Shown: positions 61,448 to 63,337, numbered from the stretch's first letter. The stretch: DNA of 64,000 bases from Escherichia coli (GCF_016903815.1 NZ_CP069973.1); one strand, 5' to 3'. Numbers and translations are program-made. The notes: generated by a model not told the origin, from the letters alone.

Positions 61448-63337
61448 TTACGCATCACCACCGAAACGACGACGACCGGTAGAGTCATCACGACGCGGAG
61501 CGCGGCCTTCACGACGTTCGCCGCTAAAACGACGACCATCACCACGACCACCTTCACGGCGTTCACCGCTGAAGTTACGACCGCCTTCACGACGTTCGCC
61601 ACCGAAACCACGACCACCGCCACGACGCTCACCGCCAGTATGCGGCTGTGCATCGCCCAGTAACTGCATGTTCATCGGCTTGTTGAGAATGCGAGTGCGC
61701 GTAAAGTGTTGCAGCACTTCACCCGGCATACCTTTCGGCAGTTCGATGGTGGAGTGAGAAGCAAACAGCTTGATGTTACCAATGTAACGGCTGCTGATGT
61801 CACCTTCGTTAGCAATCGCGCCAACGATATGACGAACTTCAACACCATCATCGCGGCCCACTTCAATGCGGTACAGCTGCATATCGCCAACATCACGACG
61901 TTCACGACGCGGACGATCTTCACGGTCACCACGCGGGCCACGGTCGTTACGATCGCGCGGACCACGATCATCACGGTCACGGAATTCACGTTTCGGACGC
62001 ATCGGCGCATCTGGCGGAACAATCAGAGTACGTTCACCCTGTGCCATTTTCAGCAGTGCGGCGGCCAGAGTTTCGAGATCCAGCTCTTCACCTTCTGCCG
62101 TCGGCTGAATTTTGCTCAGCAGTGCACGGTATTGATCCAGATCGCTGCTTTCCAGCTGCTGCTGTACTTTAGCGGCGAATTTTTCCAGACGACGTTTGCC
62201 CAGCAGTTCTGCGTTCGGCAGTTCAACTTCCGGAATGGTCAGCTTCATGGTGCGTTCAATGTTACGCAGCAGACGACGCTCACGGTTCTCAACGAACAGC
62301 AGCGCACGGCCAGCACGGCCCGCACGACCGGTACGACCGATACGGTGAACGTAAGACTCAGAATCCATCGGGATATCGTAGTTAACCACCAGGCTGATAC
62401 GCTCAACGTCCAGGCCACGGGCCGCAACGTCGGTCGCAATCAGGATGTCCAGACGACCGTCTTTCAGGCGTTCCAGAGTCTGTTCACGCAGCGCCTGGTT
62501 CATGTCACCGTTCAGCGCGGCGCTGTTGTAGCCGTTACGCTCAAGAGCTTCAGCCACTTCCAGAGTCGCATTTTTGGTACGAACGAAGATAATCGCCGCA
62601 TCAAAATCTTCCGCTTCCAGGAAACGTACCAGTGCTTCGTTTTTACGCATACCCCAGACAGTCCAGTAGCTCTGGCTGATGTCAGGACGGGTAGTCACGC
62701 TGGACTGAATGCGCACTTCCTGCGGCTCTTTCATAAAGCGGCGGGTAATGCGACGAATCGCTTCCGGCATGGTTGCAGAGAACAGAGCGGTCTGATGACC
62801 TTCCGGGATCTGCGCCATAATGGTTTCAACGTCTTCGATGAAGCCCATGCGCAGCATTTCGTCAGCTTCATCCAGAACCAGACCGCTCAGTTTAGAGAGG
62901 TCCAGAGTGCCACGTTTCAGGTGGTCCAGCAGACGGCCCGGAGTACCGACAACGATCTGCGGCCCCTGACGCAGGGCGCGTAATTGCACGTCATAACGCT
63001 GGCCGCCGTACAGGGCAACCACGTTTACGCCGCGCATGTGTTTAGAGAAATCCGTCATTGCTTCAGCAACCTGTACCGCCAGTTCGCGGGTCGGTGCCAG
63101 CACCAGAATCTGTGGTGCTTTCAGCTCAGGATCAAGATTCTGCAGCAGAGGTAAAGAGAATGCTGCAGTTTTTCCGCTCCCCGTCTGGGCCATACCCAGA
63201 ACGTCGCGGCCATTCAGCAGATGTGGAATACACTCTGCCTGAATTGGAGATGGTTTTTCGTAACCCAGATCGTTAAGGGCTTCAAGGATAGGAGCCTTCA
63301 GGCCCAGATCTGCAAAAGTGGTTTCGAATTCAGCCAT
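61448..63337 (-). CDS. deaD: DEAD-box ATP-dependent RNA helicase (cold-shock CsdA)
   Basis: ORF 61448..63403; [60 protein letters not shown]... DEAD and SAT motifs; 629 aa. Confidence 0.93.
61470..61650. repeat. imperfect tandem coding repeats for RG/RRE-rich DeaD C-terminal tail
   Basis: Recurring cttcacgacgttcgcc(gct/acc)(aaa/gaa)acgacgacc units; create mirror-image spurious ORFs on both strands. Confidence 0.7.

Follow-up and report, generated by a model that had tools for sequence, protein, structure and literature searches.

The 3' end of deaD, the gene of a cold-shock DEAD-box RNA helicase of Escherichia coli, is repetitive, encodes a tail rich in arginine and glycine, and is overlapped by long open reading frames (ORFs). 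This raises the question whether the repetition belongs to the DNA or to the protein, and what it means for the length of the helicase and for the apparent extra genes. We addressed this question in a window of 64,000 nucleotides, the whole stretch of E. coli DNA that was analyzed (GCF_016903815.1, NZ_CP069973.1), with positions counted from its first letter. An earlier note on this DNA had drawn attention to the repeats, to the overlapping ORFs, and to the possible consequences of a changing repeat number.

A deaD gene of the usual architecture

The coding sequence matches the annotated deaD genes of 5,425 RefSeq E. coli genomes, with identities of up to 100%. Over positions 61300-61800, RefSeq E. 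coli genomes including that of strain 7/2 are 100% identical to the window. Pfam assigned a DEAD domain to residues 30-196 (E = 3e-52), Helicase_C to residues 232-340, DeaD_dimer to residues 374-443, and a DbpA-type RNA-binding domain to residues 489-558, followed by the DeaD_C tail at residues 568-629. The two RecA-like domains, the dimerisation domain and the DbpA-type RNA-binding domain place the protein in the DeaD/CsdA subfamily, and orthology and gene neighbourhood agree with this placement. The yrbN ORF (26 aa) and nlpI lie upstream of the gene, and mtr lies downstream on the same strand, giving the order nlpI-yrbN-deaD-mtr that the E. coli window has in common with Salmonella (locus L007). 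An intrinsic terminator hairpin follows deaD (Table 1), and an Rfam scan of positions 58000-64000 gave no match. Among the best 120 matches to full-length DeaD, only E. coli and Salmonella were represented. Chains named DeaD in the PDB matched residues 6-210 and 218-445 only, among the best 60 matches listed.

The tail itself belongs to Pfam family PF12343 (DeaD_C), described as "DeaD helicase C-terminal disordered region". The match (E = 9e-12) scores 45.6 bits, above the gathering cut-off of 23.3, and runs over the full model, with residues 568-629 aligned to model positions 1-62 of 62. Compared with the Enterobacterales DeaD/CsdA proteins of this family, the tail shows no essential difference; it is the family itself, with the same domain order and neighbourhood as in Salmonella. 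The repeat tail of DeaD is therefore already known, catalogued in Pfam, and ordinary. New here are the explicit anatomy of four units, the derivation of the DNA periodicity from the protein repeat, a compositional account of the spurious ORFs, and a census of natural tail-length alleles.

Table 1. Features of the deaD 3' region, in window coordinates.
Feature	Position	Strand	Remarks
deaD (csdA) coding sequence	61448-63337	minus	ATG at 63337, TAA at 61448-61450; 629 aa plus stop
Predicted disordered tail, aa 568-629	61451-61636	minus	Pfam PF12343 DeaD_C
Unit u0, aa 568-578	61604-61636	minus	11 codons
Unit u1, aa 579-589	61571-61603	minus	11 codons; site of the 12-nt GTCGTGAAGGTG duplication
Unit u2, aa 590-604	61526-61570	minus	15 codons
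Unit u3, aa 605-625	61463-61525	minus	21 codons; holds the APRRDD and RRRF motifs kept across genera
C-terminal GGDA	61451-61462	minus	resembles the start of a truncated fifth unit
71-aa ORF	61438-61653	minus	+1 frame of deaD, same strand; composition artefact
110-aa antisense ORF	61425-61757	plus	wobble position shared with deaD; TTG start in the terminator-proximal spacer
deaD intrinsic terminator hairpin	61381-61405	minus	AGCCCCGATTTTTACCATCGGGGCT, then a T-run; 43 nt past the stop codon

The tail consists of four degenerate units and is predicted to be disordered

The earlier note had described about the last 70 codons of deaD as repetitive. The repeats are real, and their extent is closer to 58 codons: codons 568-625 (61463-61636) form four degenerate units of 11, 11, 15 and 21 codons. 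The non-repeat parts of positions 61448-61660 are the first 8 codons (LGDAQPHT) and the last 4 (GGDA). The units follow the pattern [G/S]-G-E-R-R-(E)-G-(G)-R-x(1-12)-F and lie C-terminal to the DbpA-type RNA-binding domain.

In composition, residues 567-629 are 32% glycine and 30% arginine, with a net charge of +8, and contain no isoleucine, leucine, valine or methionine at all. Acidic residues are numerous (11 Asp/Glu against 19 Arg). In this respect the tail is unlike a simple polycationic extension, and it might have a more specific role.

We considered whether the tail is a canonical RGG/RG box, in which at least two RGG or RG motifs are closely spaced. The 63 residues hold a single RGG motif and three RG dipeptides, and the unit is GERR(E)GGR; the tail is not such a box. 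The eukaryotic RGG/RG boxes of Ded1, LAF-1 and DDX4 bind RNA and promote condensates, and DeaD resembles them in joining an Arg/Gly-rich low-complexity sequence to a DEAD-box ATPase. The difference lies in the unit, which in DeaD carries regularly spaced glutamate and phenylalanine and falls outside the di- and tri-RGG definition.

AlphaFold2 (AF2), run with an alignment of 31 sequences, gave pLDDT values of 38-42 for residues 567-629, and DSSP assigned no secondary structure elements to them, as compared with pLDDT values of 79-87 for the adjacent RNA-binding domain. Residues 567-629 are thus predicted to be an intrinsically disordered region. No solved relative emerged when the PDB was searched by sequence with the tail alone. 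The one match, at E = 0.8, was to a Gly/Arg-rich extension at the N-terminus of ribosomal protein L15 and was discarded as being at chance level.

The DNA periodicity follows from the protein repeat

Tandem Repeats Finder (TRF) detected a 33-nt period at 61541-61633 (2.8 copies, 73% matches, score 109), and a separate repeat search found a 44-nt family of three copies with 75-86% identity, spaced by 45 and 33 nt. For the tail alone the TRF score was 106, which none of 1000 codon shuffles reached (maximum 103). At the protein level, neither four occurrences of GERR nor three of F[GS]GERR appeared in any of 200,000 amino-acid shuffles of the tail. The periodicity therefore exceeds what composition provides in both protein and DNA, and the earlier description of the tail as units of the GGERR(E)GGR type encoded by imperfect tandem repeats, here of 33 nt, is borne out by TRF, the 44-nt family, the four units and the shuffles alike. 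Plain nucleotide autocorrelation at lag 33 over the whole 213 nt gave only z = 2.9, or p = 0.08 after correction for the choice of the best lag. This signal is marginal because the units vary in length and because the first 8 and last 4 codons are not part of the repeat; motif counts and TRF scores against codon shuffles were judged the fitter tests.

A tandem pattern in DNA can be a cause or a consequence of a protein repeat, and codon choice distinguishes the two. Between units, 27 of 44 aligned pairs of identical residues used the same codon, where 24.4 are expected from codon usage in the rest of deaD. When the tail protein was re-coded at random with deaD codon usage, 41% of the trials attained the observed TRF score. 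The tail is strongly biased in its codons, with CGT for 17 of 19 arginines, GGT or GGC for glycine, and GAA for glutamate. Because so many re-codings reach the score, and because same-codon pairs are about as frequent as expected, the 33-nt periodicity of the DNA is a passive result of the protein repeat combined with the CGT/GGT/GAA bias. A recently duplicated DNA minisatellite, which we had also considered, would share synonymous sites beyond this prediction, and the tail does not. The same-codon and re-coding tests gave no sign of recent duplication or homogenisation of DNA in the allele carried by the window. A comparison of orthologous with paralogous units by DNA identity is non-discriminating at such short lengths.

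The repeat appears old and maintained at the protein level

DeaD of E. coli and DeaD of Salmonella both have 629 residues and the same four position-specific units. Residues specific to individual units are kept between the two, namely RNF in u1, GDGRRF in u2, and a stretch of 12 residues in u3. In the tail, E. coli and Salmonella codons differ by 17 synonymous and 7 non-synonymous changes, as compared with 20 and 0 in the RNA-binding domain and 90 and 8 in the core. The tail therefore evolves faster than the folded parts, yet remains under purifying selection.

Across the Enterobacterales, tails are about 60-100 residues long and contain 1-6 units of the GERR type. Conserved among them are the start GDAQP, an (A/G)PRR(D/E)(D/E) motif, and the ending RRRF(G)GDA, which is present in most of these tails. 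In the underlying alignment (A1), R183-R185 and A190 are conserved at 90% or more and G146 and R154 are invariant, and the GERREGGR core is conserved across genera. The search for tail diversity, made with a C-terminal fragment of 190 aa, returned mostly partial or frameshifted proteins. Judged from the comparison of E. coli with Salmonella, in which most differences are synonymous, the repeat appears to be old and to be maintained at the protein level.

Overlapping open reading frames and tail length among isolates

Both ORFs over the tail, of 110 and 71 aa, were found exactly where the earlier note had placed them (Table 1). The note had called them artefacts generated by the repeats; artefacts they are, and their cause is composition, not periodicity, as the frames stay open in codon shuffles. 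The open run in the +1 frame spans 77 codons, against 74 +/- 2 in shuffles, and the antisense run spans 118 codons, against 74 +/- 20, with 3% of the shuffles reaching 118.

The reason lies in the codons that the tail lacks. A stop in the +1 frame requires a sense codon of the form NTA or NTG (Leu, Ile, Val or Met) followed by A or G, and no NTA or NTG occurs in the tail. A stop in the antisense frame requires a sense TAx or CAx codon (Tyr, His or Gln) preceded by a codon ending in T or C, and residues 567-629 include no Tyr, His or Gln codon. Both ORFs are open because the amino-acid composition of the tail excludes the codons that make stops in these frames. Accordingly, codons 560-629 are free of stops in both frames, as compared with about 3 stops per 100 codons in either frame outside the tail.

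A Pfam search of both overlapping ORFs matched no family. In databases the +1-frame peptide is found solely at the C-terminus of DeaD fragments that are frameshifted and mostly singletons. Such fusions have the look of sequencing errors whose reading continues for want of a stop in the +1 frame of the tail. We conclude that the 71-aa ORF is a composition artefact and not a gene, and that the 110-aa antisense ORF is most probably one as well. For annotation, this means that the two long ORFs over the deaD tail should not be called genes. In addition, the stop-free +1 frame allows sequencing frameshifts to yield plausible fused "proteins", many of which are already in public databases, and DeaD entries of odd length warrant a check for assembly errors.

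The earlier note had also proposed that the number of repeats changes the length of the helicase tail. Natural alleles of +12, +63, +66, +90 and -132 nt, all rare and in frame, support this. For the census in E. coli, a 200-nt tail query was run against 5,426 complete genomes, of which 5,425 matched, and carriers of the common variant were counted by reciprocal 200- and 212-nt queries read through identity bands. No tail indel was present in 5,263 of the 5,425 genomes (matches of at least 95%). The 90-95% band held 162 genomes, with a span of 212 nt in the sampled rows, and the longer allele used as a 212-nt query found 161 genomes at 99% or more; 2 genomes cover less than 80% of the 200-nt query. 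Thus the comparison of C-terminal length across strains, which the note had recommended, gives an unchanged tail length in about 97% of the 5,425 genomes and a 12-nt duplication in about 3% (161-162).

This common variant is a tandem duplication of GTCGTGAAGGTG inside u1, which adds REGG and yields a protein of 633 aa; E. coli 042 carries it. All four sampled carriers have one and the same DeaD accession (WP_001306022.1) and one Mtr accession, and the duplication therefore reflects one inherited event rather than recurrent slippage. In a single genome, FXCREC035, nearly all units are lost through an in-frame deletion of 132 nt, and the annotated protein is 585 aa long; the microhomology GCGTCGTG flanks the deletion on both sides.

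Longer tails were found among the protein clusters. One E. coli cluster (P0126) has 30 additional residues (90 nt) on the 633-aa background. In Salmonella, one cluster (P0146) has 26 additional residues (+78 nt), two (P0154 and P0155) have 21 from a duplicated u3, and three (P0225, P0232 and P0233) have 22 from a duplicated u0 and u1, P0232 being present on 4 contigs. Smaller changes of -5, -2, +1 and +2 aa also occur among the clusters. Large duplications are seen in non-repetitive parts of deaD too, in the singleton clusters P0121-P0125, and some of the singletons may therefore be misassemblies.

The duplications of 63, 66 and 90 nt, the three that were checked in DNA, copy the sequence exactly and keep the register of the units; their junctions fall within a GGCGAACGTCG(T/C)G stretch that the units share. 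Several units contain near-identical stretches such as GGCGAACGTCGTGAAGG, and the end-points of the 12-, 63-, 66- and 90-nt duplications and of the 132-nt deletion lie within them. This pattern of end-points points to replication slippage, or else to unequal recombination between units, as the probable source of tail indels.

Two readings would give the repeats or the ORFs a larger role than we do. According to one, a real gene overlaps deaD, chiefly the 110-aa antisense ORF, encoding a Pro/Arg/Ser-rich protein. Its run of 118 codons is longer than most codon shuffles provide, the frame is free of stops in Salmonella too, and E. coli-Salmonella differences within it number 15 synonymous to 8 non-synonymous. 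However, third codon positions coincide between the antisense frame and deaD, so that changes synonymous in deaD are mostly silent in the antisense frame as well; the 15:8 ratio is therefore geometric and no sign of selection. The Tyr, His and Gln codons from which its stops would have to come are the ones absent from the tail, the ORF matches no Pfam family and no Rfam feature, it starts with TTG, and its sequence is of low complexity, while the +1 ORF on the deaD strand is wholly explained by composition. We regard an overlapping gene as extremely improbable. According to the other reading, the array is a contingency locus, in which frequent slippage acts as an adaptive switch of tail length. 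Several independent variants exist (+12, -132 and +90 nt in E. coli; +63, +66 and +78 nt in Salmonella), and about half of the odd-length clusters among the best 120 matches have their indel in the tail, which makes up 10% of the gene. Against hypervariability, 5,263 of 5,425 E. coli genomes have no tail indel, the sole common variant is one nearly identical allele from one event, and E. coli and Salmonella have both kept 629 residues and four units. Moreover, the units are long (33 nt) and 73% alike, all changes are in frame, and singleton variants may be assembly errors, similar singletons being seen in non-repetitive deaD. A contingency locus would be highly polymorphic in repeat number among closely related strains; a locus at which about 97% of genomes share one tail length is not of this kind, and we consider an adaptive switch very improbable. 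Tail-length variation at deaD is real, in frame and rare, and the locus is not hypervariable.

Possible roles of the tail

On the whole, DeaD very probably carries a disordered Arg/Gly-rich tail of the DeaD_C family, built from an old protein repeat, which would serve as an RNA-tethering appendage, and the additional ORFs are not genes. The functional part of this reading draws on the literature on CsdA and on the basic tails of other DEAD-box proteins, by analogy with which the tail would be a flexible, polycationic appendage without sequence specificity. Such an appendage would tether the helicase dimer to RNA beside the RNA-binding domain, would speed strand annealing, and, through its multivalent contacts, would promote condensates of DeaD with RNA. 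How strong the effect is, but not how specific, would depend on the number of units.

We infer these tethering, annealing and condensate roles for residues 568-629 from several reports. The C-terminal domain of CsdA is the likely seat of ATP-independent annealing and is important in cold shock (PMC3590231). A secondary, non-specific RNA-binding site has been proposed in the C-terminal extension of CsdA, accounting for the need for single-stranded extensions (PMC1616957). Purified DeaD undergoes salt-dependent phase separation and marks condensates in vivo (PMC12758526), and disordered regions at the C-terminus of RhlE helicases aid RNA binding and unwinding as well as phase separation (PMC11260450). 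According to the summary of Xu 2017 in PMC11850223, the RNA-binding domain is the main anchor of CsdA, and a tail-less construct remains active, with ATPase and unwinding raised relative to smaller constructs. As far as that summary goes, catalysis would therefore not depend on the tail, which might contribute little or even inhibit.

The closest functional parallels come from two other groups of helicases. The basic tails of Mss116p and CYT-19 are likewise disordered, positively charged extensions that follow the folded C-terminal domain in helicases acting as general RNA chaperones, and the proposed function, non-specific RNA tethering and annealing, would be the same. They have no sequence homology to the DeaD tail, which differs in being periodic and rich in Glu/Asp (+8 over 63 residues) and in following a DbpA-type RRM in a dimeric helicase. 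RhlE1 and RhlE2 of Pseudomonas aeruginosa resemble DeaD as bacterial DEAD-box helicases linked to growth in the cold that have C-terminal disordered regions, and these regions improve both the binding and the unwinding of RNA and drive phase separation (PMC11260450). The RhlE proteins belong to another subfamily, without a dimerisation or RNA-binding domain, and their disordered sequences are unrelated to that of DeaD; a mapped interaction with RNase E exists for RhlE2 only (PMC11260450).

That the RRRF(G)GDA end is so strongly conserved hints at a docking motif more than at bulk electrostatics alone. Taken further, the tail could be mainly a protein-docking element, in which APRRDD and RRRFGGDA recruit DeaD to a partner such as RNase E and the cold-shock degradosome, or to the ribosome, with the GERR units as spacers only. 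In favour of this, RRRF(G)GDA and (A/G)PRR(D/E)(D/E) are kept across genera while the number of units varies, and the C-terminal disordered region of Pseudomonas RhlE2 suffices to bind RNase E (PMC11260450). However, the literature examined maps no partner to DeaD residues 568-629, and the conservation of the GERREGGR core across genera, with G146 and R154 invariant, is unexpected in a spacer. Docking is compatible with RNA tethering in any case; as the main role of the tail we consider it unlikely.

Returning to the tail as an RNA-tethering appendage, the natural lengths of 585, 629, 633 and 650-663 aa are a ready allelic set, which could be used to probe the putative control of RNA tethering and condensates by the disordered tail. 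A more specific proposal, which we hold to be a long shot, is that the number of GERR units is a natural tuning knob and RRRFGGDA a separate docking motif. If so, rare alleles would shift the threshold for DeaD-RNA condensates, and hence growth in the cold or entry into the persister state. Alleles that could differ in this way would be that of the 633-aa lineage, to which E. coli 042 belongs, the Salmonella and E. coli tails with one or two additional units (21-30 residues), and the deletion that leaves 585 aa.

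A second low-complexity stretch of variable length in DeaD

The linker at aa 444-487 of DeaD is a second low-complexity stretch of the protein. The repeat search assigned its direct repeats, which are of the DRGPR type, to two families (D5 and D7), and AF2 confidence in the predicted structure is low across the stretch. Deletions of 3 aa were found here in the Salmonella DeaD clusters P0200/P0216 and P0240, indicating that this linker, too, varies in length in frame.

Features in and around deaD
Feature	Window position	Strand	Remarks
Second low-complexity stretch	61877-62008	(-)	deaD aa 444-487, between dimerisation domain and RNA-binding domain
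yrbN ORF, 26 aa	63330-63410	(-)	Pfam PF28071 in Salmonella locus
Upstream open extension of deaD frame	63337-63403	(-)	open up to TTG at 63403
deaD terminator hairpin	61381-61405		43 nt past deaD stop; ~90 nt ahead of mtr start codon
mtr promoter/operator region	about 61322-61359		between deaD terminator and mtr start at 61294
Counterpart of +1-frameshifted DeaD fragments	61438-61653	(-)	P0011, P0014, P0024, P0026, P0033, P0035, P0036 and others

Atypical DeaD proteins in the database

DeaD is found in databases at lengths of 629, 646 and 651 aa because the deaD frame remains open upstream as far as the TTG. The deaD ATG itself is overlapped by the yrbN ORF by 8 nt.

Many other database proteins, mostly singletons, are DeaD fragments with a frameshift that puts the Arg/Gly-rich C-terminal tail in its +1 frame, where no stops occur. 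Probably, these fragments reflect sequencing errors in the tail region that were propagated as predicted proteins. Five further singleton entries from E. coli/Shigella (P0121-P0125, 656-829 aa) carry large tandem duplications of non-repetitive parts of deaD, namely its core and the regions for the dimerisation and RNA-binding domains, and these duplications are likely misassemblies.

The region between deaD and mtr

The hairpin downstream of deaD received a terminator-like score on both strands, and its long T-run is found on the minus-strand side only. Upstream of mtr, in the promoter/operator region, the locus of the E. coli isolate AF18 contains a 5-nt insertion (TGCAA) within the TGCAGTGCA motif.
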